Below are positions 2,552 through 57,834 of a stretch of 64,000 bases of DNA, piece by piece. Location: positions 6,803-70,802 of the forward strand of contig JBBDPM010000006.1 of the NCBI GenBank assembly GCA_040876345.1, in the 5' to 3' direction. The DNA is from Candidatus Woykebacteria bacterium. Its GTDB lineage: Bacteria; Patescibacteriota; Microgenomatia; Woykebacterales; RBG-16-39-9b. A program made the position numbers and the translations under genes. The notes beneath the pieces were generated by a model. The model had not been told where the DNA came from and did not search any database. It was given only the letters and a program-made list of their open reading frames with translations. The stretch's first letter is position 1. Each line of letters opens with the position of its first letter.

Positions 2552-2665
2552 TTGTTCCAATATGACCAAGAAAAGCAGCGTTCTTAGCCTTGTACTCACA
2601 AAGCTCCTCGTTGTGGGGGCAAAACGATTGCGGGGGTAAGAGTATTTCGCACCTTTTTTTAACAA

Positions 2666-2686
2666 CCCCCGCAAGGGGGTTTTTTA
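2666..2686 (+). terminator. Intrinsic terminator hairpin CCCCC-GCAA-GGGGG plus T6, with an upstream alternative pairing partner (TTGCGGGGG at 2621-2629)
   Basis: CCCCCGCAAGGGGGTTTTTT. The upstream TTGCGGGGG is the exact reverse complement of CCCCCGCAA, so two mutually exclusive hairpins are possible (attenuator-like). Confidence 0.5.
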
Positions 2687-2703
2687 GTGTTTATTTTGAT
2701 CAC

Positions 2704-2776
2704 AAGCCCTTCGTACAATGAAGGACAGCCAGACTACCACTGGAAGACGTGGGTTCGAACCCCGCAGGGCTTACCA
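2704..2776 (+). tRNA. tRNA-like element or pseudo-tRNA: perfect 7-bp acceptor stem, T-arm GTGGG/TTCGAAC/CCCGC, encoded CCA; D and anticodon arms non-canonical
   Basis: AAGCCCT...AGGGCTT-A-CCA pair perfectly. The T-loop is TTCGAAC. The only 7-nt anticodon-type loop (ACTACCA, anticodon UAC) has C at positions 33 and 37 and a 4-bp stem. No D-stem can be drawn. Confidence 0.35.
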
Positions 2777-2809
2777 AAAAATCACTGTGGTGGAAAGGAG
2801 ACACCGATC

Positions 2810-3073
2810 ATGACAATCACGGGTAGCTCAAACCCAAGCGCTGCGTTGCTGAGTATCCCTGGGGTACGGACAAAATGTCCCAAGTGCCCGTCCTGCAATC
2901 GACCGGTTGGCAGAGGAAACAGACACACGGACGCGGATGAACTTGACCATAACGACCAAACTCATGTTCACTGCCCGTATGACGACTGCAGGGAAGTTTC
3001 CCTGGTTCGAGGCGACGAAGACGGGATTGTCCTAACTTCACTTCACCAAAGTGGCGAGTCAATGGCGACTTAG
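2810..3073 (+). CDS. Small Cys-rich zinc-ribbon-like protein (~87 aa)
   Basis: AAGGAG 8 nt upstream of the ATG at 2810. Motifs CPKCPSC...HCPYDDC. GC-rich island. Confidence 0.45.
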   Translation: MTITGSSNPSAALLSIPGVRTKCPKCPSCNRPVGRGNRHTDADELDHNDQTHVHCPYDDCREVSLVRGDEDGIVLTSLHQSGESMAT

Positions 3074-3309
3074 CAAATAAGCAGGTCGTTAGAGAGAGGT
3101 GCAATCATTACTACTGACTTCGGTAGGGCCAAACAAGCACTAGCACGGTCGAGGCAGAAGCTTGATCAAGCTTTGGCGGGTTTAATGGTGGCGGATGAGG
3201 AGTCTGTATTTGTTATCGATCTAGTAACTATCATGAGCCAGGTCGAACAACTAGTGCAGACCATCCATTCGGTACAGAACGGGGTCGAGAGATAAAACAG
3301 GAGGCACAC

Positions 3310-3570
3310 ATGGTAGCTCACCCAAGCAACGAAGCAGAAGAGGTGGGAGACGAGGGGCAGGTGGTCGATGCGAAGGAGCGGCGGAAGTTCCGCGAACGGC
3401 TTATCGCTGCAGGAGGGGCCAATAACCAAACACTCGTGCTGGTGGCTCAAGAAGAACTGCTGAAACACCCTGAGTGGAAGCCAGTGGTGGAAAGCGTACT
3501 GAGAGAGTTGGGATTGCAGTACTTGGCGGAGCAAATACACTGCGGTGCCCCTGCCTTCGCTCATAGCTGA
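3310..3570 (+). CDS. Hypothetical 86-aa protein (island B)
   Basis: Strong RBS ACAGGAGG 6 nt before the ATG. Acidic N-terminus. The overlapping minus-strand ORFs have no RBS. Confidence 0.45.
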   Translation: MVAHPSNEAEEVGDEGQVVDAKERRKFRERLIAAGGANNQTLVLVAQEELLKHPEWKPVVESVLRELGLQYLAEQIHCGAPAFAHS

Positions 3571-3674
3571 ACTCACTTGGCGGAGAGAGACAACCAATGA
3601 AAGCGGACCAGCCGGCATAATATCCGCTTCTCACATCGTTGCCCCGGTATCCGGCTCTGCTGGGGCATATCTTC

Positions 3675-3703
3675 TTGAATTGAACTTAACTTCCTGATAT
3701 AAT
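3675..3703 (+). promoter_or_regulatory. clpP promoter TTGAAT-17-TATAAT giving a (near-)leaderless transcript
   Basis: TTGAAT at 3675-3680, TATAAT at 3698-3703. The clpP ATG at 3715 lies only about 5 nt past the expected transcription start, and there is no SD. Confidence 0.55.
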
Positions 3704-3714
3704 CCACTCCACTT

Positions 3715-4371
3715 ATGGAACTAGTCCCGATGGTTATTAAACGCGACCCAAGAGGGGAACGGGCATATGATATTTACAGCCGGCTGCTTGAGGATAGAAT
3801 TATATTTTTAAGCGGGCCAATTACTGATGAAGTAGCCAATATTATAATTGCCGAGCTTTTATATCTTGAAAATGAAGATAACGAAAAGGATATCAGTATT
3901 TATATAAACTCACCTGGTGGTATGGTTCATTCCACCCTAGCAATGTACGACACCATGAAGTATGTGAAACCTGATATTTCGACGGTCTGCGTGGGTTTAG
4001 CAGCCTCTGGGGCAGCAATTATCCTCTCGGGCGGTAAAAAAGGAAAAAGGTATACTCTGCCAAATTCAAAAATAATGATTCACCAGCCAATGACAGAAGT
4101 GTCAGGCCAGGCAAGTGATATAAAAATCCATGCCGATGAGATATTAAAGCTTAGGAAAAAACTTAATGAGATACTATCCAAAGAAACCAAGAGGCCGATG
4201 TCTCAAGTAGAACAGGACACCGACCGCGATTTTTATATGAGCGCTCAGGACGCTGTGAAATACGGGATTATAGACAAAGTAATCGATTCACGAAAAACTC
4301 TCCCCTCAAGAGCAAAAGAGGCCCCGAAAAAAGAAGCACCAGAGACTAATTTGATCGCAGACCTTAGATAA
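3715..4371 (+). CDS. clpP: ATP-dependent Clp protease proteolytic subunit ClpP (with Lys/Ala/Pro-rich C-terminal tail)
   Basis: [19 protein letters not shown]...INSPGG...MIHQP are ClpP hallmarks. Confidence 0.92.
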
Positions 4372-8352: not shown

Positions 8353-8646
8353 TAACTTAATATTAAAAGCACTGATTCAGAGAGGGCTGATTCGAAAACC
8401 ATACAGAGAGCCAGTTAAGGTGAGAGTCTGGCAGGCGATTAGATCAGTCTATTCACTGAGGAGCTGAAGGCTGAAAAATAATTTTAGTAGGTCATTCCGG
8501 GAACGCCCGTTATAGCGTGATGAACCTTATCACCCTTCAAACAACCGGGTTGAGAGGTTCTAGATTGGTCTTTCTCGGCAACGGGAAGACAAGTAAGGTG
8601 GTACAGCGGCCAAGACTCGCCCTTACAGGGGGGGTCTTTTTTTGTG
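8353..8646 (+). promoter_or_regulatory. T-box riboswitch leader (AAGGTGGTACAGCGG at 8595-8609) with terminator (8614-8645) upstream of aroF-pheS-pheT
   Basis: Near-consensus T-box sequence (consensus AGGGTGGTACCGCG) containing UGGU to pair the tRNA 3' NCCA end. Followed by a GACTCGCCC-TTACA-GGGGGGGTC hairpin plus T8 immediately before the aroF start. Confidence 0.6.
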
Positions 8647-9675
8647 GGAGAACTTATGATTGTAATAATGGAAAAAGATTATTTAAAAAAGGATCTTAAC
8701 TTGGTTATAGATCGAATACATAGAGAAGGGTTAAGAGCCGAGCCAATAATAGGAGTGGAGCGTACAGTTGTTGCCGTAGTCGGGGACATCACAGAAATAC
8801 CAGAAATGAAGTCCAACTTAGAGGAAACGCCTGGAGTGGCCGAAGTTCAAAGAATTAGCACACCATATAAACTCTCTTCTCGGCAAGTGCAGAAAGAAGA
8901 CACTATTGTCGATGTCTCCGGAGTAAAGTTTGGCGCTAAAAATATAGTGGTGATTGCTGGCCCGTGCGCGGTAGAATCTGAAAAGCAAACAGTAGAAACT
9001 GCTATTGCCGTAAAAAAATCTGGGGCGAAGGTTTTACGAGGCGGCGCCTTTAAACCAAGAGCCTCCCCATACAGCTTCCAAGGTTTGGAAAAAGAAGGTT
9101 TGAAAATACTCTCCAAAGCTAGGAAGGAAACTGGACTCCCCGTTGCAACAGAAGTAATTAGCCCAGAGGATGTAGAGCTCGTCTCGGAATATTCTGACAT
9201 CCTCCAAATCGGGGCGAGAAACGCCCAAAACTTTCCCCTTTTAAAGAAGTGTGGAAAAGCAAAAAGACCAATAATACTAAAAAGAGGCCTGGGCGAGACG
9301 ATTGAAGAGTGGTTACTCTCGGCTGAATATATCTTGGAAGGTGGTAATAAAAACGTAATTCTTTGTGAGAGAGGGATAAGAACATTTGAGGTGGCCACTA
9401 GGTTCACCTTAGATATCGATGCAATACCCCTTACTAAAAACCTCTCCCACTTGCCGGTAATTGGGGACCCAAGTCACGGAACAGGGAAAAGAATATTAGT
9501 TAAACCAGTCGCCAAAGCCTGCATTGCCGCTGGTGCTGATGGGCTTATCATTGAGGTTCACCCAAACCCAGAGCAAGCAAAATCTGACTCTCCGCAGCAG
9601 TTGAATTTCAGCGAGTTCGAGATTCTTATGAGGGAGGTCAGGAAAATTGCAAGGGCGGATGGGAGAAAATTATGA
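8644..9675 (+). CDS. aroF: 3-deoxy-7-phosphoheptulonate (DAHP) synthase, type I-beta, with N-terminal ferredoxin-like regulatory domain (Thermotoga-type)
   Basis: IAGPCAVES...VLRGGAFKPRTSPYSFQGL...IGARNAQNF...LKRG...CERGIRTF...GDPSH matches Thermotoga-type DAHP synthase. The true start is probably the ATG at 8656. Confidence 0.85.
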   Translation: MGELMIVIMEKDYLKKDLNLVIDRIHREGLRAEPIIGVERTVVAVVGDITEIPEMKSNLEETPGVAEVQRISTPYKLSSRQVQKEDTIVDVSGVKFGAKNIVVIAGPCAVESEKQTVETAIAVKKSGAKVLRGGAFKPRASPYSFQGLEKEGLKILSKARKETGLPVATEVISPEDVELVSEYSDILQIGARNAQNFPLLKKCGKAKRPIILKRGLGETIEEWLLSAEYILEGGNKNVILCERGIRTFEVATRFTLDIDAIPLTKNLSHLPVIGDPSHGTGKRILVKPVAKACIAAGADGLIIEVHPNPEQAKSDSPQQLNFSEFEILMREVRKIARADGRKL

Positions 9676-13421: not shown

Positions 13422-13973
13422 CTATCCTATCGCGCGAATCTTGACTTGGGCTGGTCGGGCTGTTACAACCGGGCCCGGTTGATAACCTCCCCACACGCAA
13501 CGAATCTCTTCCCTATGCGCACGGAAGAAGGTGGGGAACCAAGTGAGGTATTCGAGAACCTCCTCACGAATCCGCCTGTTGATGCTGTACGGGCGGCTTT
13601 CGTTTTGCACTACTTCCCGCCACGTTTGAACTCCGTCAGCACCCACCGCAAGATCCCCCTCGAGCACTGCCCCGAAACGTTGCAGATACCGCTCCACCTC
13701 GAGGCGAAGGCGCTCAAAGTTCTGTAACAGCCTGACTACCTGGTCGTCGTATCCTGGGAAGGGGTTAGGACCCCTAATCACCAAGTCCTTAGCCTTGCCC
13801 CTGGCAAGGTAAGCGAGCCAGAAGATCGTATCCACTGAACCGCGGACCAAACCTTCGGCAAGGACGAGATCGTGTCTTTCGAAACCGATGTTGAGTAGGA
13901 ATTCCCCCGCGAAGTCTTCCGCAGGTCTATCCTCACCAGTTCCCACCCCCTGTGAAGAATCTGGTAGGGTCAT
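13422..13973 (-). CDS. Hypothetical ~183-aa protein (GC-rich island)
   Basis: ORF with an internal ATG preceded by AAGGAGG. No known motif recognised. Confidence 0.4.
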   Translation of the reverse strand: MTLPDSSQGVGTGEDRPAEDFAGEFLLNIGFERHDLVLAEGLVRGSVDTIFWLAYLARGKAKDLVIRGPNPFPGYDDQVVRLLQNFERLRLEVERYLQRFGAVLEGDLAVGADGVQTWREVVQNESRPYSINRRIREEVLEYLTWFPTFFRAHREEIRCVWGGYQPGPVVTARPAQVKIRAIG

Positions 13974-14115
13974 TTGGCGTTTGGGCCTCCTTTCCACTCG
14001 CAAGTCGGTCTGAGCGGCGGGACTGGGTACGAAGCAGCACACTTTCTCGTACTCAATCCCGCACGTTTATTAAAGTACAAGCAGAATATACTATATTTTA
14101 ACCTGAAAAGGCAAA

Positions 14116-20863: not shown

Positions 20864-21097
20864 ATGAACACTTTAGAAGAAATAAAAGAACTAATTTCAG
20901 GTCAATTTGGAGTTGAGAAAGACTCTATCTTACCTGATTCCCACCTTCAGGACGACTTAAATGCAGACCCTCTGAGTATTGCGGATCTTGTTGTTAGCCT
21001 GGAAGACAAATTCAAGTTAAAAATACCTCAAGAAGAAATAATTAAATTTAACAAGGTTTCAGACATTGTAGAATTTATAGAAGACCAAATGGATTAG
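20864..21097 (+). CDS. acpP: Acyl carrier protein-like (DPLS in place of canonical DSL)
   Basis: 77 aa, acidic. LNADPLSIADLVVSLEDKF resembles the ACP helix II region. Position next to rnc as in Firmicutes. Confidence 0.65.
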   Translation: MNTLEEIKELISGQFGVEKDSILPDSHLQDDLNADPLSIADLVVSLEDKFKLKIPQEEIIKFNKVSDIVEFIEDQMD

Positions 21098-39479: not shown

Positions 39480-40007
39480 GTGCGACAACTAGCCGAACTT
39501 CCCACAATCAGCATGAATACCTTTCGGATTGTCGGCCTTGAATGGGCTGGTAGTGACGAAAGGGCATCCGAGTTCACAAAAAGCGTCCTTAAGCGCCTTG
39601 CGGGTGGCGAAAACCCCCAAATCGCGATCTTTCTGGAACGGGTTTTCGAGCGTTTTAGGAACCGGGATGGGTTTCCAATGAACGCAACCTTGCTCTACGC
39701 ATGCAGCGTCTACCGGATGCTTGAAGTCGAAGCCCAAGGACAACTGCCGGTTGTGTCAACCGACACCGGAGCACCAATCCAGGTAGAGTATCTGCGTGAT
39801 CCAGAAGGATTCTACGCTAAACTCGTCATGGAAGTTGAGAAGAAGAATCCAGTTGTTCTGGAATCAGTTCTTCTTATAAACGTGTGGTACGCCCTTGCGG
39901 GAGATCTTGCCTCCGCAGCGGAAATACCACGTCCCGGACTGGCGCTTTACAAGATGCTCGAGAGCCAAATAGAATCAAATAGGCTCTCGGAATCTCTCGG
40001 CTATTAA
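39480..40007 (+). CDS. Hypothetical 175-aa protein on the GC-rich island between gyrB and gyrA
   Basis: GTG start with GAAGGAG 8 nt upstream. Followed by a terminator-like hairpin ACGA-GGGG-TCGT plus T-run near 40185. Confidence 0.5.
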   Translation: MRQLAELPTISMNTFRIVGLEWAGSDERASEFTKSVLKRLAGGENPQIAIFLERVFERFRNRDGFPMNATLLYACSVYRMLEVEAQGQLPVVSTDTGAPIQVEYLRDPEGFYAKLVMEVEKKNPVVLESVLLINVWYALAGDLASAAEIPRPGLALYKMLESQIESNRLSESLGY

Positions 40008-44150: not shown

Positions 44151-44480
44151 ATGGAAACACCGAGAAGTTTCCTCTACCTGGCACTGCTGCACCACGGCAA
44201 GTTACTGGTTGAGCGTTTGGATGTTAGGGAACGTACTCCCGCAGCCGTAGCCCTAATCGCTCACTGGTACCAGATAGGGGAGATAAGCAGACAGGACGAG
44301 GAGTCCCTATTCAATTGCTGGAGGGAGCTTTCCTTGCACGTCTTTGCTTGTAGTAAAGATAAAGAGCAGAGACGTGAGGAAAATCTCGTGACTAGCCGGC
44401 AAGACTTTGCGGAAGTTCTAATATCTGGATACGCGGAGTTCCGCAAATGTCTTGATCAACGCCTGGCCAAAGCTGCCTAG
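44151..44480 (+). CDS. Hypothetical 109-aa protein (GC-rich island)
   Basis: Very strong RBS GAGGAGGTG 7 nt before the ATG. Followed by a 9-bp hairpin GCGGTGTTG/CAACACCGC. Confidence 0.5.
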   Translation: METPRSFLYLALLHHGKLLVERLDVRERTPAAVALIAHWYQIGEISRQDEESLFNCWRELSLHVFACSKDKEQRREENLVTSRQDFAEVLISGYAEFRKCLDQRLAKAA

Positions 44481-44652: not shown

Positions 44653-45579
44653 TTATAGAGCAATCTTATTCCCGGAGTGAAAAGCTTTATGAACCTCTTT
44701 TAACTGTTTATTCGTTATGTGGGTATAAATCTGGGTTGTGGAAATATTTGCATGACCAAGCATTTCTTGAACACTGCGTATATCCGCCCCGTTTATCAGA
44801 AGATCAGTTGCAAACGAATGCCGAAGGGTGTGCGGAGTTGCCTTGATTGGAATTTTTGCCTGTTTAACGTATTTCTCAAGTATCCGCTCAATTGAACGCG
44901 GCGACAGCCTCATTTTTTCACCACCTCTGCTTGGGTCTTCCTTGCCAGAATAGCGAATAAAGGCTGGTTTAAAAGGGTCCTTCCTCTGGCCAAAATACTT
45001 TGCCAGCCACTCTTTGGCGGCATCTGATAAGAAAACAATCCGCTCCTTCCTCCCTTTCCCGACCACTCCAAAGTCACCTTTATCTAAGTTAATTTGGTCT
45101 CGATCTAGTTTTTGTAGCTCTGAAACACGCAAACCAGTAGAGAAGAGGGTCTCAAGCAAAGCTTTGTCACGTACACCTTCAATTTTAGAAATATCAGGCG
45201 CGGACAAAAGTCTATCCAAATGTTCGTCATCCAGCACCTTAATTGGCCGAGGCTCTTGCTCACCAAGTTCGATTTTTTCGGCGGCCAAAGTCTCGATATC
45301 GTGCTTGGCAAGGTAGCGAAGAAACGCTCGCAAAGCGATAATAAAATAATTTTGGGTGACTCGTTTTAAGGAAAGGCCGGTTTTTTCATCTACGTAGCGG
45401 GCAAGGAAAACTCGGTATTTGCGGACCATCTCTTGGTCAATCTCCTTTGGGTCAATATCTTTCGCGAAAGATAGGAAGCGCCGCAGGTAATGGTCATAGT
45501 TACGAATTGTCAGCTGAGAAGCGTTCCTTTCAATCTCCAAATATTCTAAAAAATCAGTGATAAGTTTGGACAGTTTCAT
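44653..45579 (-). CDS. xerC: Tyrosine site-specific recombinase, XerC/XerD-like
   Basis: C-terminal R..HxxR..Y catalytic box (HTLRHSFATDLL...LGHANISTTQIYTH). Confidence 0.85.
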   Translation of the reverse strand: MKLSKLITDFLEYLEIERNASQLTIRNYDHYLRRFLSFAKDIDPKEIDQEMVRKYRVFLARYVDEKTGLSLKRVTQNYFIIALRAFLRYLAKHDIETLAAEKIELGEQEPRPIKVLDDEHLDRLLSAPDISKIEGVRDKALLETLFSTGLRVSELQKLDRDQINLDKGDFGVVGKGRKERIVFLSDAAKEWLAKYFGQRKDPFKPAFIRYSGKEDPSRGGEKMRLSPRSIERILEKYVKQAKIPIKATPHTLRHSFATDLLINGADIRSVQEMLGHANISTTQIYTHITNKQLKEVHKAFHSGNKIAL

Positions 45580-46217: not shown

Positions 46218-46590
46218 TGCTTAACCTCATTTAACCAATCAATTTCGCCCTATAGTGTTGAAAAGCCTGTCACGGTATGTTAAAATCTTTATCGGATGCC
46301 CGGCTACAATTGTGCTGAGGGACTGACCAGTCGCAGCTCCAGCTTAGGCCTATTAAAAAATATTTTTAGGCCGAACCGATGGCAGAGGGCAACTTCTGTG
46401 CAAAGGGAAGGACTGGCGCCGGGCAAACCTTCACCGACTCCGTCTTCGTCGAGTCTGGCTCGATTAGGACGTGCGTTGGAAGGGTGGGTATGAGAAAGTT
46501 CACGAACCGAGAATTCAGCACCGACAACGCTGGATACGCTTGGCCAATCGTGATTCCGGATCACGACTCCTCTACCACCCCGCCTCATTT

Positions 46591-47775
46591 TTAAGAACCA
46601 ATTATTAGCAAAGTAGCAAGCACTACAGAATCTTTCCCAAACTTTTCTCTTAAAACATCAACTCTTTTCTCAAGCTCTAATCTTTTTTCACGGACTGATT
46701 CGAATAATAACGGCTGAATTACTCCGTCGGGCCCAGTGTTAAATTGAGAAACACCGATTCCAACCAACCTGAGGGGAGTTTTTCCGTCCCAAAGTTCTTT
46801 TAATAAGGTTTCGCCCATCTCATAAACTTCTTTCGTTATGTTGGTTGGGTAGGGGAGTACTCTTTGGCGAGAAACAGTCCGAAAATCGGCGTAACGAATT
46901 GTAACGTAAACGCATCGCCCAAGATATTTTTCCGACCTTACCTCTTCACCAACTTTTTCTACTAGTTTCTGCAGCATCGCCAAGATAAATTTTAAATCAT
47001 TACTATTTTTCGCAAAAGTTTCGCTGCGGGAAACTGATTTGGCTTCCACCCGAGGTATAAACCAAATTGTATCTTCGCCGTTGGCAGAGTGCCAAAGATT
47101 AATCGCAACTTGTCCCCAGGCTTTAATTTTCCCATAAGAAACACAGGCTAACTCTCCCAAAGTTATGACACCTAGGCGGTGAAAATACTCTTCCATTTTT
47201 CTACCAATTCCTGGCAGTTCTATAATAGGTAGGGGAGAGAGAAATTCTTTTTCGGCTCCTTTTGGCACGTAAGTTAACCCATCGGGTTTTTGAAAATCAG
47301 AAGCAACTTTAGCAACCACTTTAGTTGAAGCGATACCAATTGAGGCTGTAATCCCAACTTCTTTTTTGACTTCGTCTTTTATTTTCTTTGCCACGCTAGT
47401 CAAATCCGAATAAATCAAATCAGTGTTCGAAAAATCAAGAAAAGCTTCATCAATCCCAATCCGCTCTACTTTCGGAGCGTACCTAGCTGCTATTGAAAAA
47501 ACTGCATCGGACACTTTTATATATTCTTCGTAGTGACCACCTACAACAATGCAAGATGGACAGAGCCTCAGAGCTTGGAAAAGAGGCAGGCCGCTTTTTG
47601 CCCCGTACCGACGGGCTTCGTAAGAAGCAGTTGCCACAACCCCGCGGGGGACGCTTCGACCGTGTGGATCCACCCGACCAACCAAAATTGGTTTCCCCAG
47701 CAAAGAAGGGTTAAGTTTTTGCTCAACACTGGCAAAAAAAGCATCCAAGTCTAAGTGCATCCAAGAAGAGCGTGT
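46591..47775 (-). CDS. dinB: DNA polymerase IV (Y-family); true start probably the internal Met at 47775
   Basis: HLDLDAFFASVE catalytic motif; palm, fingers and little-finger order. Confidence 0.85.
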   Translation of the reverse strand, partial: TRSSWMHLDLDAFFASVEQKLNPSLLGKPILVGRVDPHGRSVPRGVVATASYEARRYGAKSGLPLFQALRLCPSCIVVGGHYEEYIKVSDAVFSIAARYAPKVERIGIDEAFLDFSNTDLIYSDLTSVAKKIKDEVKKEVGITASIGIASTKVVAKVASDFQKPDGLTYVPKGAEKEFLSPLPIIELPGIGRKMEEYFHRLGVITLGELACVSYGKIKAWGQVAINLWHSANGEDTIWFIPRVEAKSVSRSETFAKNSNDLKFILAMLQKLVEKVGEEVRSEKYLGRCVYVTIRYADFRTVSRQRVLPYPTNITKEVYEMGETLLKELWDGKTPLRLVGIGVSQFNTGPDGVIQPLLFESVREKRLELEKRVDVLREKFGKDSVVLATLLIIGS

Positions 47776-48120
47776 CATAAGTATATTCTCCGAAATATAT
47801 ACGAATAAGTCAATTCGGACAAAGTGGATCAAAATAGTAAAAACTTAACATGGTTAGCTCAGACAACAAGTCTGAGCGCAGCACGCGAGAGTACTCTAGC
47901 CCATGAAATGGTCGCAGAGCGACTAGTGAGGTAATTTAGTTACGGAACGTGATATAATCGCCGCAGCCGGAAGTAGGAGAGTAGACCTGGCAACCGGGAT
48001 GACCCAGGAAAGTGGTTGAGGTCTCTAAGTCAATCACGGCTGACTCGGGAATAGGGGACCCGCGCCTTAACCGCAAGCGCAAAAAACCAACGAAAGCCAC
48101 GCACATTCACACTGGAGGTA

Positions 48121-49440
48121 ATGATGCAACTAACGAAGCCGAGAAACCTAGAACGGGTGGTTGTCACCGGAATGGGCGGAGAAACACCGCAAGGTGACTT
48201 AGAGCAAACCTGGGCGTCGGTGCTTGGCGGAAAGAGTGTAATCAAGCCCGTTGTCTACTCCATCCAGACACCAACCGAAGTGGGAAACCGGGGCAGAATC
48301 AAAAAACGAACCACCGTCAGGGAAGAAGTCTATCTAACCGCACCCCTGCCAGATGGGTGGGACAACGAACTTGACCCCAAAGACAAGAGAAGGACCGATG
48401 TCAACGGTCAGCTTCTTGTCTTGGGCATCGGCCGAGCCCTGAATTCAGCTTGCCTAACCGAGCGCGATCGAACTGATGTCGGTCTCATCACGGGCACCAA
48501 TCTGGTCTTCACCGAGTACAACGTCGACCAGATCGAGTGCTACATTCACTTTGGTGTAGCTGACCCATTGGCAGCAGCCAAAGTGATGATCAACAACGCC
48601 GCTGGCTACGGCGCAATTCGCTACGGTCTTGGCGGCCCCAACTTCGCCCTCTCCTCCGCTTGCGCAAGCGGTAGCATGGCGGTGGGGGAAGCGTTCAGAA
48701 AAGTCCAGTACGGGGACGCGCCAATCATGTTGGCGGCTGGAGTTGAAGGTGCCACTCACCCACAGAACCTCTACGCTTTCGAACAGGCAAAGGCCTACTC
48801 CACATCCCTCGATAAGGGAGCGGCAGCGAGTCGTCCCGGAAGCTGTTCTCGGGATGGGTTCGTAATGGGAAACGGCTGCGTCGTGCTCGTCCTCGAGTCT
48901 CTCAACTCGGCACTCGACAGGGGAGCGCCAATTTTGGCGGAAATCATTGGCTACGGCAACACAGACGATAAGGACAGCCTCTACGACCCTCCTGAAGATG
49001 GCGAAGGTCTCAAAAGAGCGATCATCAGATCTTTGCAAGACGCAGAGATCTACGATCAGCTCGCGGAGATAGCCGACCAATGCTACTACAACGGCCACAC
49101 CACAGGAACGCCTAATGGAGATAGCGCCGAACTGATGGCTATTAGGGACGCCTTCGGCCCAAAGGCCGTGAGGATGCTCAAGATGAGCTTCACCAAGAGC
49201 AGTACAGGCCATCTTCTCGGTTGTGCTGGTGCCCTTGAAGCTGCTCTGTGTGTTATGGTCATCCAGGACCAATTGATCCCACCAACCATCAACCTGGACG
49301 ATCCTGACACAAAGCTTGGTGGTCTCCAGGTTGTCAAAGACAACCCACTGGCAGCGACCATCAACTACACGATTAGTCCGTCTGCCGGCTTTGGCGGTCA
49401 CAACGGGTGCGTCGTTATCAGAAAGTGGAAAGGGGAGTAG
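48121..49440 (+). CDS. Stand-alone beta-ketoacyl-ACP synthase (FabF/KAS-II-like), GC-rich
   Basis: RVVVTGMG, active-site Cys SSACASG, His motifs NGHTTGTPNGD and GHLLGCAG. GGAGG 7 nt upstream. No other fab genes adjacent. Confidence 0.8.
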   Translation: MMQLTKPRNLERVVVTGMGGETPQGDLEQTWASVLGGKSVIKPVVYSIQTPTEVGNRGRIKKRTTVREEVYLTAPLPDGWDNELDPKDKRRTDVNGQLLVLGIGRALNSACLTERDRTDVGLITGTNLVFTEYNVDQIECYIHFGVADPLAAAKVMINNAAGYGAIRYGLGGPNFALSSACASGSMAVGEAFRKVQYGDAPIMLAAGVEGATHPQNLYAFEQAKAYSTSLDKGAAASRPGSCSRDGFVMGNGCVVLVLESLNSALDRGAPILAEIIGYGNTDDKDSLYDPPEDGEGLKRAIIRSLQDAEIYDQLAEIADQCYYNGHTTGTPNGDSAELMAIRDAFGPKAVRMLKMSFTKSSTGHLLGCAGALEAALCVMVIQDQLIPPTINLDDPDTKLGGLQVVKDNPLAATINYTISPSAGFGGHNGCVVIRKWKGE

Positions 49441-49520
49441 TAGGGATTGAAAGGATAGGGAGCAACGCTCTGCTGGTGTGCGCCTAACGGCCTGGCAGTA
49501 CCCAGTAGAGCGTCTCCACT

Positions 49521-50315
49521 TTAAGTCTTAGACTTTCTCCACCTTGAATCAAGCGCTTCTTGTTCACTACAAAACCAACGCTCACCCTTACTCTCATCAA
49601 TCACTATCTTGTCGTAATATTTTTGGCCGAGTAAATGATAAATTTTCTCGCCAGAACTTGATATATTTCCTTTTATTAGGCATTGGCCAGACTGAGACTG
49701 AGTCTGATAGGTAGGATTAGTAACTCCAACAGCGTCGCATACTCCCCAAAGACCCTTATTATTTTCTCGAGCAAATTTTTCAGCTTTATTAAAACGATCC
49801 TGAAGTTTTACATCTGGTGGATAAGGGGAAGAATGAGCAAAACCTTCTTTAACCAAAATTTCGTTCATCAAAGTATCTCCAACCCAGATATAACGAAGAA
49901 GTCTCCCGTATTTGTCAGTCTCAGAAATGTCTTTTTCCAGCTTTACCTTTTTACCCTCAACCAAACTTCTATTTTTGGCAGTTGCTTCTTTTCCAAAGCA
50001 TTGTACCGACTTTCGGGGATCTACGGTTTCTGGTGTATCAATACCAATATAACGCACTTTTTGCCCACCCTCAAGCTCAACAGTATCTCCATCGACTACT
50101 TTTGTTACTAAAACCTCATCCCCTTTAGGAGAAGACAACCCATCAACATCAGTACCTGAGGGTGGGTTAAAAGTTTGACCACCCACTTGACCTCCAATTT
50201 CTTTCTTTACTATTTCTTCGGTTGTCTGTCGTGATAGTGAAGAGGAAACAAGAATAGTAGCGCCAAAGACTATTAACAGTGTGGAAATGAACGCCAAATA
50301 ACCTTTACTTTTCAT
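49521..50315 (-). CDS. Membrane-anchored thermonuclease (SNase family) with C-terminal Cys-containing module
   Basis: N-terminal TM. SNase motifs VVDGDTVEL...RYIGIDTPE...RLLRYIW. Confidence 0.75.
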   Translation of the reverse strand: MKSKGYLAFISTLLIVFGATILVSSSLSRQTTEEIVKKEIGGQVGGQTFNPPSGTDVDGLSSPKGDEVLVTKVVDGDTVELEGGQKVRYIGIDTPETVDPRKSVQCFGKEATAKNRSLVEGKKVKLEKDISETDKYGRLLRYIWVGDTLMNEILVKEGFAHSSPYPPDVKLQDRFNKAEKFARENNKGLWGVCDAVGVTNPTYQTQSQSGQCLIKGNISSSGEKIYHLLGQKYYDKIVIDESKGERWFCSEQEALDSRWRKSKT

Positions 50316-50359: not shown

Positions 50360-51022
50360 ATGCTAATAATTAGTAAATACGTGGGTGAACAAATAAATTT
50401 CACGACAGCAGATGGTGTAAGTATTTCGGCATCATTTGTACAATCTCCAACCCCTAAAAATACAGTGGTACTTTTGCTTCACCAACTGCGGAAAGACAGA
50501 TCCATCTGGGACGCTCTTGTGCAAAAGCTCGCTACCTCTGGTTTTTCTTCACTAGCGATTGATTTTCGAGGCCACGGTCAAAGTGGTGGTGGTAGCTGGG
50601 AAGACTTCAGCGATGATCAATTTAAAGCGATGATAGGAGATGTCGAGGCAGCCGGAAGATATTTGAAGGAAAGGTTACCCTCTTCAGAAATAGCGATCAT
50701 TGGCGCAAGTATTGGTGCTAATCTCGCCCTGAATTATGCCGTTAAAAATGAGGTTTCTAGAGTTGTGCTTTTATCCCCAGGTCTATCTTATCATGGGATA
50801 ACCACCGAAGAGGCCGCTTCAGGGCTTTCCAAACCCCTTTTTGTAGCCGCAAGCTCAGATGATCCCAACCCTGCTATGGACGCCATGAAAAGAATTGAAG
50901 AGCTAGCCATGACGCCAGATTCTTTGTTAAAAGTAGTCACTTATTCTGACGCCGGCCACGGTGTAAATATGTTCTCTAAGTATCCCCAGCTTCAAGACGA
51001 AATCGTGCTGTGGCTCAAATGA
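50360..51022 (+). CDS. Alpha/beta hydrolase
   Basis: Nucleophile elbow GASIG; Asp/His in the C-terminal part (DAGHG). Confidence 0.7.
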   Translation: MLIISKYVGEQINFTTADGVSISASFVQSPTPKNTVVLLLHQLRKDRSIWDALVQKLATSGFSSLAIDFRGHGQSGGGSWEDFSDDQFKAMIGDVEAAGRYLKERLPSSEIAIIGASIGANLALNYAVKNEVSRVVLLSPGLSYHGITTEEAASGLSKPLFVAASSDDPNPAMDAMKRIEELAMTPDSLLKVVTYSDAGHGVNMFSKYPQLQDEIVLWLK

Positions 51023-52589: not shown

Positions 52590-52913
52590 ATGAGGAATAT
52601 AATGAAACAGCTCCGACCAGTCCCCCTGGCAATTCTGGCGGCCTTGTCATTGTACCCACGCCCAGTCTCAGAGATTGCAACGGAAGTAGGGGAAATGATT
52701 GGCGAACCAGTCAGCGCACCAACTCTCTACGGAGTGACTGGATCCCTTCTCAGGCTTGGGTAACTTGAGGTTGACACGAACCGTACCATCAATCGGCGCT
52801 CCCTCTACCTGAAAATCACCAAAATCAGGCACCGAGCGCTCGAAGAGGGTACACGGAGACTGGAGCGCCTCACAAGCTACCTACGTCAACCTTCACTTAG
52901 GCCAGTAACCTAG
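52590..52913 (+). pseudogene. PadR-family transcriptional regulator interrupted by an in-frame TAA (52761-52763)
   Basis: The N-terminal winged-helix part (PLAILAALSLYPRPVSEIATEV...APTLYGVTGSLLRLG) and the C-terminal part (LEVD...NRRSLYLKITKIRHRALEE) are in the same frame, separated by a single TAA. AAGGAGG upstream. Confidence 0.55.
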
Positions 52914-56732: not shown

Positions 56733-57089
56733 AAATACCCTAATATAATCGAATTATCTAATTCGAATTTATTCGAATAAAATTCGGTTGCATTGTCATG
56801 GAAGCAACCGAAAACAGTCCTCAAGATAAAATCCGAACCCGTTGCCTACATTAAAAGAGACCTCGATCTCATTAAAGATTGATCTTACAACCTCTTTAAT
56901 CTAACCCCATAGTTATTGACTCATCCGTATAAATGTGCCAATATTTACCTCTTACGTAAGCCAAACGAGCTTGTGCTAGATGAAGAGAGGAGAAGCAACG
57001 TGGAAATCACGTACGAAAGCACGATCTAACTCAAGGATCTCACAGCGATTGCTAGGGAGATCCTGCCTCAAGTCCTGGAAAAACTGGTA

Positions 57090-57416
57090 GTGGGAGACGG
57101 GCTTACTAACCCTGTCCAAACAACCCTGATCCTCCCGGAAGGCCTCGAACTGGACATTACGTCTGCAAAGGGTTTTACCCCTTTGACCGAGGATGATCTC
57201 GACAGAATGGCCAAGGGTTGGGCCGAAAAGTTCCTCGAACAACTGACGATCCGCGGCATCGAGATCTACTCGGACTTCGATCACAAGGGTGTCATACTCG
57301 AACAGGAACTGGCACCTGAAGATCGGGCTTTCATACTCGTCATGCAAGTGCAACTATCCAGAAGCTGCGACAAGCAATCGGCACGGCCTAGAATTAGAAA
57401 GAGGAGGTTCCCTTGA
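57090..57416 (+). CDS. Hypothetical 108-aa protein (GC-rich island), GTG start
   Basis: ORF with a 9-codon upstream ORF carrying AGAGGAG; overlaps the next gene by 4 nt. Confidence 0.4.
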   Translation: MGDGLTNPVQTTLILPEGLELDITSAKGFTPLTEDDLDRMAKGWAEKFLEQLTIRGIEIYSDFDHKGVILEQELAPEDRAFILVMQVQLSRSCDKQSARPRIRKRRFP

Positions 57417-57682
57417 AGATATCGGGAGAAATAACTTTCGACCAGATCGTATTGGCTGGTTCGAACTTCCTTTCGGCCTTGGAAAAGCCAGAGGAACACA
57501 AGCAAATGACTGTCGAGGGGTACACCGAAATGTTCCTTGACGGTCTGAAAGATCGAGGAATCTCCACGTGGGACGAGCTTCTCGCTGAGGACAATCGCGA
57601 GATCTTCACCGAAAGTGACCAAAAGGAGGCAGACCCACTGATGCGTCAGTTCTTAGCGGTGATCCTCCACGAAGTCACTTAA
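57413..57682 (+). CDS. Hypothetical acidic 89-aa protein (GC-rich island), TTG start
   Basis: GAGGAGG 6 nt before the TTG. Overlapped (TTGA) with the upstream ORF stop, consistent with an operon. Confidence 0.4.
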   Translation: MKISGEITFDQIVLAGSNFLSALEKPEEHKQMTVEGYTEMFLDGLKDRGISTWDELLAEDNREIFTESDQKEADPLMRQFLAVILHEVT

Positions 57683-57834
57683 CAGTCCCAACAGGGACCG
57701 TAAGCACCTGACTGCAGGGTCACAATCTTCGGAACGTGGCCCTTGCTCCTGAGGAAATCTTTGAAAAAAAGGTTTCTTGAAGAGCAAGATTACTTGTCTT
57801 GTGCAAAGACTTTTCTTGACTGAGGAAGGCAATT

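Follow-up and report, generated by a model that had tools for sequence, protein, structure and literature searches.

A divergent FabF-family ketosynthase gene in a cargo-swapping slot beside dinB of Candidatus Woykebacteria

The ketosynthase locus

We analyzed a 64,000-nucleotide stretch of a Candidatus Woykebacteria genome (the window; contig JBBDPM010000006.1 of assembly GCA_040876345.1), in which a single gene on the forward strand, at 48121–49440, encodes a divergent β-ketoacyl synthase (ketosynthase, KS) of the FabF family, named KS-A. The main new result is that this gene sits in a cargo-swapping hot spot beside dinB, where related loci carry other genes or none. The 439-residue open reading frame (ORF) matches the N- and C-terminal β-ketoacyl synthase domains of Pfam (PF00109, E 2e-37; PF02801, E 4e-22). 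A Shine–Dalgarno sequence, GGAGG, can be read directly at 48114–48118 (+) and is kept as GGAGG or AGGAGG in two related loci, L003 and L004. The spacing to the first ATG is 2 nt and that to a second ATG, at 48124, is 5 nt, a difference that makes the 438-residue form starting at 48124 the likelier product; 438 residues is also the length called for this gene in the Logan assemblies.

The gene lies in a GC-rich island at about 47850–49520 (+) that also holds a promoter, a leader and a 3' hairpin. The GC content is at least 50% in 300-nt windows across 47901–49600 and peaks at 61%. The gene itself has 55.5% GC, and its GC content at third codon positions (GC3) is 0.625 against a mean of 0.39 for 60 other genes of the window (z = 3.2), although four or five hypothetical ORFs match it in GC3-richness, so that KS-A is not the sole outlier. 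Downstream, an inverted repeat at 49465–49513 separates the convergent KS and SNase genes; its 12-nt arms are 92% complementary and enclose a 25-nt loop, and it is a possible bidirectional terminator. It has no T-run, and the terminator scanner made no call there. An earlier reading of this DNA made from its letters alone (the sequence-only reading) had described a GC-rich, complete KS gene with a Shine–Dalgarno sequence and a terminator hairpin. The composition and the ribosome-binding site are borne out, and the hairpin stands as an inverted repeat of uncertain terminator function.

The same reading had called the gene an orphan, and within the window it is one: domain scans of essentially all ORFs of at least 100 residues found no fabD, fabG, fabH, fabZ, fabI, acpS, plsX, plsY or plsC. 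The sequence covered is the 64-kb window together with the related loci that we fetched, and the NCBI contig alone measures 586 kb. The gene content of the window is typical of bacteria of the candidate phyla radiation (CPR), with aminoacyl-tRNA synthetases, a type IV pilus cluster, gyrase and ribosomal proteins, and its DinB is 100% identical to an NCBI protein of Candidatus Woykebacteria bacterium. Both junctions of the KS-A locus recur identically in two Logan assemblies and in the NCBI metagenome-assembled genome (MAG) GCA_040881185.1, on the 586-kb contig, and the locus is therefore not an assembly artefact.

Family, fold and catalytic residues

Among NCBIfam models, those for FabF give the best matches to KS-A, and the protein nevertheless falls under every curated cut-off: it scores 313.2 bits with the FabF equivalog model TIGR03150 (cut-off 493.75) and 319.4 bits with the subfamily model PRK07314 (cut-off 387). 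Other condensing-enzyme models score well below these, namely FabB (PRK07967, 191.9 bits; cut-off 630), KasA/B (199 bits) and a polyketide synthase (PKS) KS model (PRK07103, 173 bits), so that the FabB type, KAS I (β-ketoacyl-acyl-carrier-protein synthase I), is not the best match. FabF sequences of the PDB match KS-A at E 6e-68 with 32–37% identity, the enzyme of Thermus thermophilus (1j3n) reaching 37%. The AlphaFold2 model of KS-A is predicted with high confidence (pLDDT 94.6), and FabF structures head the Foldseek list with TM scores of 0.86–0.93.

The complete KAS fold with a Cys-His-His triad claimed by the sequence-only reading is present. Cys181 (in SACASG), His326 (NGHTTGTP) and His364 (TGHLLGCAG), together with Lys359, match in alignment the residues that form the active sites of 1j3n and 4r8e, and they are invariant in 119 sequences. 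All three known proteins of the KS-A type, which are 58% identical, keep C181, H326, K359, H364, T328, T330, D283, the G423-F424-G425-G426 loop and N428. We mapped these residues onto FabF using the FabF–AcpP study of Mindrebo et al. (PMC7138838), which is the source of the residue roles given here. In the first gating loop, GFGG and Asn404 (N428) are kept, and Asn396 is replaced by Pro; Asp265 (D283) of the second loop is kept as well. This second loop, which is conserved within FabF (PMC7138838), has the pattern Tyr267-His268-x-Thr270-Ser271-Pro-Pro in FabF and reads D-S-L-Y-D-P-P in KS-A, with just the Pro-Pro retained.

The surface on which AcpP docks is altered in part. In its first region, the basic residues K87, R90 and R91 of the window protein (FabF Lys65, Arg68 and Lys69) are kept, and they are partly kept in the two relatives; elsewhere R206 has become K, R127 and K128 are deleted, and I129, S130 and F132 have become A, D and L. 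The pocket segment GSGIGG reads GTNLVF, and Phe398 is Ala. A 16-residue insertion is modelled as an extended β-hairpin at about residues 55–80, and a 5-residue insertion precedes the first catalytic histidine, His326.

Set beside the FabF/KAS II enzymes of known structure (Escherichia coli 2GFW and 6OKG; T. thermophilus 1J3N; Pseudomonas aeruginosa 4JB6), KS-A shares the two-domain thiolase fold, the triad (Cys163-His303-His340 in FabF numbering), Lys335, Thr305 and Thr307, Asp265, the GFGG gate with Phe400, and Asn404. It differs from them in an identity of about 35–41%, in its remodelled second loop, in the loss of Arg127 and Lys128 with Ser130 changed to Asp, in the two insertions and the pocket changes, and in lying outside any fab operon as an accessory, strain-variable gene. 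By these features of sequence and predicted fold, KS-A is a strongly divergent member of the FabF (KAS II) branch of the thiolase-fold condensing enzymes with its catalytic residues intact. It is probably an active condensing enzyme whose recognition of the substrate or the carrier has changed: the remodelled second loop, the deleted Arg127/Lys128 and the bulkier pocket lining suggest a changed carrier specificity, chain-length specificity or both.

A slot with exchangeable cargo between SNase and dinB

We collected DinB homologues and read their gene contexts, which revealed that the interval between the SNase gene and dinB holds different cargo in different strains. KS-A occupies it in the window and in loci L009 and L003. 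In L014 the same place and orientation are taken by a second ketosynthase, KS-B, which is GC-rich, 437 residues long and 32% identical to KS-A. L015 carries a SAM-methyltransferase gene together with a third type, KS-C, of 416 residues and 26–30% identity. A GC-rich gene of the FA_desaturase_2 (acyl-ACP-desaturase) family fills the slot in L013, and the slot is empty in L011/12 and L018–L021. In L016 and L017, there is no SNase gene and no KS in the interval upstream of dinB. We considered whether contigs L018–L021 are simply broken at the slot and dropped this explanation, as the contigs continue into the SNase gene. The three ketosynthase types are all FabF-like yet under the cut-offs (313, 363 and 355 bits for KS-A, KS-B and KS-C), and KS genes occur in the slot of at least four separate lineages. 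The flanks do not share this turnover: between the window and L014, neighbouring proteins are 75–85% identical, against 32% for the ketosynthases.

The exchange is clearest at the strain level. L003, which carries KS-A, and L019, whose slot is empty, have DNA that is 99.4% identical over 6,036 bp (99.4–99.5% over about 6 kb for L018 and L019), and the flanking proteins of L003 and the empty-slot strains are 99.5–100% identical. This identity ends sharply 46 nt upstream of the dinB ATG. Since strains this close differ in the presence of the KS gene, the difference is a strain-level presence/absence polymorphism of an accessory gene exchanged by recombination. KS-A is thus an accessory gene, and the recombination hot spot that it occupies is flanked by dinB and by SNase, a gene of the secreted-nuclease type. 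The third KS-A protein, P0003, comes from the Patescibacteria MAG B106T1L10, where synteny is kept: the genes run gyrB, hypothetical gene, gyrA, SHMT gene and, further on, dinB (−) and KS (+).

No flanking direct repeats, terminal inverted repeats or transposase gene were found at the edges of 47850–49520. The sole integrase-family gene of the window, of the XerC/D type at 44653–45579, is syntenic in relatives. On the dinB side, the variable slot is bounded by an AT-rich intergenic block at 47779–47849 (−), directly upstream of dinB, with the pattern CCGAA..AAGTCAAT..GGACAAA..TG.ATC; it is conserved in the window, L003, L011, L013, L014 and L015, and the strain-level breakpoint falls at its outer edge. 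The block could act as a promoter or as an operator of the SOS type.

Replacement-type flexible genomic islets have homologous flanks with alternative, non-homologous cargo among strains of one species. The slot resembles them in its conserved flanks (an SNase/DUF192 side and a dinB side), its sharp breakpoint, its alternative cargo and the lack of an integrase, transposase or repeats at its edges. It differs in being very small, with one or two genes, in cargo that is repeatedly lipid-related, and in the homologous promoter and leader that precede different cargo.

Other genes around the slot also deserve mention. DegV/FakB-like and PlsC-like genes adjoin the cargo of L013, and the neighbourhoods at L013 4351–7876 and L015 888–5744 hold genes for DegV/FakB-like proteins, a PlsC-like acyltransferase, FA_desaturase_2 and methyltransferase. 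GC content is raised above that of the neighbouring genes in the PlsC-like, desaturase and methyltransferase genes, and only marginally in the DegV gene, and the whole looks like a small lipid-handling region of apparently foreign composition. Near the slot in the window, a GDSL lipase similar to TesA/lysophospholipase L1 (58565–59179, +) and an alpha/beta hydrolase (50360–51022, +) are kept in several relatives; both are compatible with lipid scavenging.

Promoter and leader RNA

An extended -10 promoter element, TGATATAAT, lies at 47950–47958 (+) and is conserved in relatives, with the forms TGGTATAAT, TGGTATACT, TGATATAAT or TGCTATAAT in L003, L004, L014 and L015. This element (TGnTATAAT) and the bases upstream of it are homologous in the KS-A, KS-B and KS-C loci. 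The promoter scanner missed it because no good -35 element is present. Transcription from this element, with a start predicted near 47963, would give a leader of about 160 nt (47959–48120, +), in keeping with the long 5' untranslated region that had been read from the sequence.

The leader contains, at about 47968–48040, the motif GGAAGTAGGAGAGTAG...GGTCTCTAAG, which is common to the window, the KS-B locus L014, the empty slots of L018, L019 and L021, and L017. In L018 the leader continues into a palindrome with a T-run and is followed by no ORF; in L017 its 5' motif marks the beginning of a GC-rich segment, some 190 nt long, that is closed by a 13-bp helix. As a leader- or small-RNA-like element, the segment GGAAGUAGGAGAGUAG...GGUCUCUAAG follows the conserved -10, with equivalents at L014 7708–7870, L018 260–500 and L017 5423–6000. 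Rfam has no relevant match in 47700–48200 (E up to 10); the scan of the whole window shows none in the slot (E up to 0.1), and L014, L015, L017 and L018 show none either (E up to 1). The fold of the whole leader is no better than that of shuffled sequences (z = −0.9), and RNAalifold applied to three and to five leaders returned weak, unconvincing structures. We therefore set aside a riboswitch as the identity of this element, which could be a regulatory leader or else a small RNA.

Rarity, origin and evolution

The KS-A type is rare. A word-indexed search of 5.8 billion clusters returned the window protein (P0001), P0002 and P0003 only, the relatives being 58% identical, and the next matches were ordinary FabFs at about 40%. 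A profile search run exhaustively over 1.84 billion representatives showed the same gap, with scores falling from 833 bits for P0003 to at most 302 bits. GTDB genomes contain one KS-A locus, and no relatives were found in JGI metagenome contigs or in IMG/VR. One JGI metagenome match (L006, 25% identity) is not a member of the clade, and one relative is known just from a 1.7-kb contig. A phage or plasmid origin was likewise set aside: IMG/VR holds no relatives, and matches in phage records are merely FabF-like sequences of 32–36% identity.

In neighbour-joining (NJ) trees, the three KS-A proteins group with a bootstrap of 100 on a long stem within the FabF radiation, apart from PKS KS domains. 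The comparison with FabF and PKS ketosynthases that the sequence-only reading had called for places KS-A in the former and yields no supported sister or donor; the nearest sequences, from Brevibacillus fulvus and 'KS family' proteins of Planctomycetia, are weakly attached. KS-A and KS-B do not group in the tree (bootstrap for the pair just 14%). They have in common several rare characters, namely a 5-residue insertion, a 1-residue insertion, Gly107 replaced by Asn and the loss of the SPFF motif, and on this basis a common origin followed by very fast divergence is possible. KS-C looks independent.

Comparison of lineages indicates selection on the protein. The proportion of nonsynonymous differences (pN) in KS-A is 0.29–0.31, against a proportion of synonymous differences (pS) of at least 0.74; pS is at least 0.72 in all genes compared between lineages. 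Synonymous sites are therefore saturated throughout, and the statement that can be made is that pN lies well below pS, a pattern by which the KS-A protein is constrained. Its identity between lineages is 58%, whereas neighbouring proteins reach 73–83%.

The sequence-only reading had also proposed that the gene was laterally acquired. Exchange is strongly supported by the strain polymorphism and the swapped cargo. Composition is a different matter: KS GC3 values across lineages are 0.63, 0.50 and 0.45, and syntenic hypothetical genes likewise stay GC3-rich. As the KS gene and other conserved hypothetical genes have remained GC-rich despite saturated synonymous sites, GC-richness alone is no proof of recent transfer. 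The persistent GC3-richness of the KS gene might reflect a pool of genes that circulates among strains.

The acyl-carrier-protein-like gene

A protein that resembles the acyl carrier protein (ACP) is encoded elsewhere in the window, at 20864–21097 (+), between nusB and rnc. It matches the phosphopantetheine-binding domain PF00550 at E 2.2e-10 (41 bits; cut-off 20.8) and is 100% identical to an NCBI entry named 'acyl carrier protein [Candidatus Woykebacteria bacterium]'. The serine that would carry the phosphopantetheine arm is replaced by proline, giving DPLS for DSL, as the sequence-only reading had noted. This loss is lineage-wide: related contigs read DPLS, two read DQLA without any serine, and DSLD is confined to distant homologues of 42% identity or less. 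The protein retains the phosphopantetheine-binding fold, the similar length, part of the acidic helix II (E47, D48) and the rnc-adjacent position that canonical AcpP has in Firmicutes, and differs from it in the change of Ser36 to Pro, or to DQLA in some homologues. Where E. coli AcpP has E53 and D56, it has K and Q.

The gene stands in the row rpmF-nusB-acp-rnc-rpsP-KH-trmD. By the gene order of E. coli and Bacillus subtilis, plsX-fab-acpP would sit at this place. The ancestral fab position is empty, which agrees with the suggestion that the gene marks the site of a lost plsX-fab cluster. The ACP-like gene is conserved across many related contigs and KS is sporadic, so the two are not an obligate pair; and because the attachment serine is lost, the ACP-like protein is unlikely to be the carrier for the ketosynthase. 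By its sequence, it is unlikely to carry acyl groups at all, and its retention in a conserved row suggests an ACP relic kept for a non-carrier function. The earlier idea of ACP-dependent condensation is accordingly unlikely for this ACP.

Proposed role and alternatives

CPR bacteria are thought to build their membranes from the lipids of other cells, and whether and how these lipids are modified is an open question. CPR bacteria have been reported without complete lipid pathways and ACP machinery (PMC7242380), although some, the Nealsonbacteria, have near-complete sets of homologues of type II fatty-acid synthesis (FAS-II) without AcpS and FabD (Probst et al. 2020, PMC7242380). Those sets present a similar picture of CPR with FAS-type enzymes and no evident ACP-processing machinery, and raise the same question of ACP-independent chemistry on acquired lipids; the present case, in a different CPR lineage, is instead a single ketosynthase gene, strain-variable and in a cargo-swapping slot.

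In the mechanism that we propose, KS-A would act as a homodimer. An acyl chain would pass from a thioester donor to Cys181; His326 and His364, with Lys359, would decarboxylate a malonyl thioester; and the resulting enolate would attack the acyl-enzyme to give a β-ketoacyl product two carbons longer, with Phe424 of the GFGG loop acting as the gate. Coenzyme A (CoA) thioesters could serve as the carrier, and a foreign or other carrier is also possible. The cell probably scavenges fatty acids, and this, taken with the lipid-enzyme cargo and neighbours of the slot, leads us to read the ketosynthase as an optional tool for acquired acyl chains, which it would elongate or β-keto-functionalise outside any housekeeping FAS. 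That KS-A is an active FabF-family ketosynthase and an exchangeable accessory gene seems to us highly probable. Its specific assignment to lipid remodelling is tentative, with the odds somewhat against it; it draws on the FA_desaturase_2 cargo and on DegV/FakB-like and PlsC-like neighbours elsewhere, which support the lipid-remodelling idea of the sequence-only reading indirectly. As a whole, an active condensing enzyme for remodelling scavenged acyl chains is our best explanation, to which we give a probability of roughly one half.

Several points weigh against this explanation. The sequence read contains no partner genes, neither a route to the malonyl donor nor FabG, FabZ or FabI, and a ketosynthase alone yields just a β-keto thioester. 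The link to lipid remodelling is guilt by association, and the associations are in other genomes. The NJ tree leaves the origin of KS-A open, with no donor found. Nonsynonymous divergence (dN) of KS-A is 0.40, two to three times the 0.12–0.20 of neighbouring genes, and this speed, together with dispensability at the strain level, also fits a weakly selected passenger.

Such a passenger, a functionless or nearly neutral foreign gene that drifts in the hot spot and is transiently kept, would indeed account for a gene of atypical composition that near-identical strains can lack, that diverges faster than its surroundings and that has no partners in the sequence read. We consider it quite unlikely, in view of the intact frame, the catalytic and gating residues all kept in three copies at 58% identity while synonymous sites are saturated, the low pN relative to pS, the conserved promoter and Shine–Dalgarno sequence, the confident predicted fold and the recurrence of KS genes in the slots of at least four separate lineages. 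Conversely, KS-A could be an ordinary FabF of a complete or near-complete FAS-II whose other genes lie elsewhere, an orphan in the window only. FabF models are its best family match, Nealsonbacteria provide a CPR precedent (PMC7242380), and about 64 kb of the genome was inspected. A housekeeping FabF is, however, not expected to be present or absent between strains whose flanks are 99.4% identical, nor to be missing from most of the Woykebacteria loci examined, nor to score so far under the FabF cut-offs (313–319 bits against 493.75 and 387); the ACP-like protein of the lineage lacks its attachment serine, and the ancestral fab position by acp and rnc is empty. This alternative too appears decidedly improbable; if a full FAS did lie elsewhere in the genome, the finding would shrink to an unusual FabF paralogue.

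That KS-A serves a small pathway of secondary metabolism, polyketide-like in kind, is very unlikely; a polyketide role was among those offered by the sequence-only reading. Enzymes of the KS type are common to FAS and PKS, the PKS KS model PRK07103 does match weakly, and accessory status and lateral mobility, which the gene shows, are common among biosynthetic genes; yet no chain-length factor, second KS, carrier, ketoreductase, cyclase or thioesterase gene lies within at least 10 kb of any KS-A locus, the NJ tree places KS-A with FabF-type enzymes at a long branch from PKS KS domains, and Asp265, which is Asn in the iterative type II PKS actKS (PMC7138838), is kept. Chimeric assembly or contamination, in which a GC-rich fragment became joined to an AT-rich CPR contig, would explain the abrupt GC shift at both ends and a relative known from a 1.7-kb contig only, and is effectively refuted by the identical junctions in the two Logan assemblies and the NCBI MAG, by the 58%-identical copy that an unrelated MAG carries at the syntenic position, and by a leader and promoter homologous to those of sister loci.

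Returning to the active accessory ketosynthase, we can extend this explanation, unlikely as the extension is, to a slot beside dinB that serves the Woykebacteria as a dedicated site for exchangeable 'lipid-tailoring cassettes'. The conserved promoter and the undescribed leader RNA GGAAGUAGGAGAGUAG...GGUCUCUAAG, possibly a riboswitch or small RNA, would drive whichever of KS-A, KS-B or KS-C is present; the ketosynthase would work on CoA thioesters or on host-derived acyl carriers, independently of the serine-less ACP; and each episymbiont strain would in this way adapt the fatty acids taken from its own host.

The slot offers a concrete handle on the question of lipid modification in CPR bacteria: strains of one lineage carry there one of three divergent types of ketosynthase or a gene of the desaturase family, or leave it empty, and in some genomes genes for fatty-acid-binding (DegV) and acyltransferase proteins adjoin it. 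Should KS-A prove active in the absence of any conventional ACP, it would provide a natural example of FabF-type chemistry that is independent of ACP or promiscuous in its carrier. Two more oddities open to testing are the ACP-like protein, which lacks the serine throughout the lineage, and the leader RNA, which is conserved yet unclassified.

Other observations in the window

Two RNA elements lie far from the KS-A locus. A T-box leader at 8363–8627 (+), upstream of a DAHP synthase gene at 8644–9675, scores 84.6 bits (E 7e-17; the Rfam gathering score is 93). A weak tRNA-like Rfam match at 2704–2773 (+) scores 32.5 bits, just over its gathering score, within a GC-rich segment at 2600–3800; ARAGORN is silent there.

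Five further ORFs are GC3-rich (0.52–0.65 against a median of 0.375), at 12–1442 (−), 3166–3618 (−), 13422–14042 (−), 39480–40007 (+) and 44151–44480 (+). PHROGs and PADLOC gave nothing for any of the five, and Pfam gave nothing for the four that were searched (all except 39480–40007). The ORFs at 39480–40007 and 44151–44480 have GC-rich syntenic counterparts in L003 with 58% and 30% identity, against 73–83% for neighbours, a behaviour like that of the KS gene. Three other GC-rich stretches, at 46296–46594, 52600–52900 and 56976–57800, contain only short overlapping ORFs on both strands and have no Rfam match; structured RNAs that lack annotation, or the remains of genes, are possible identities.

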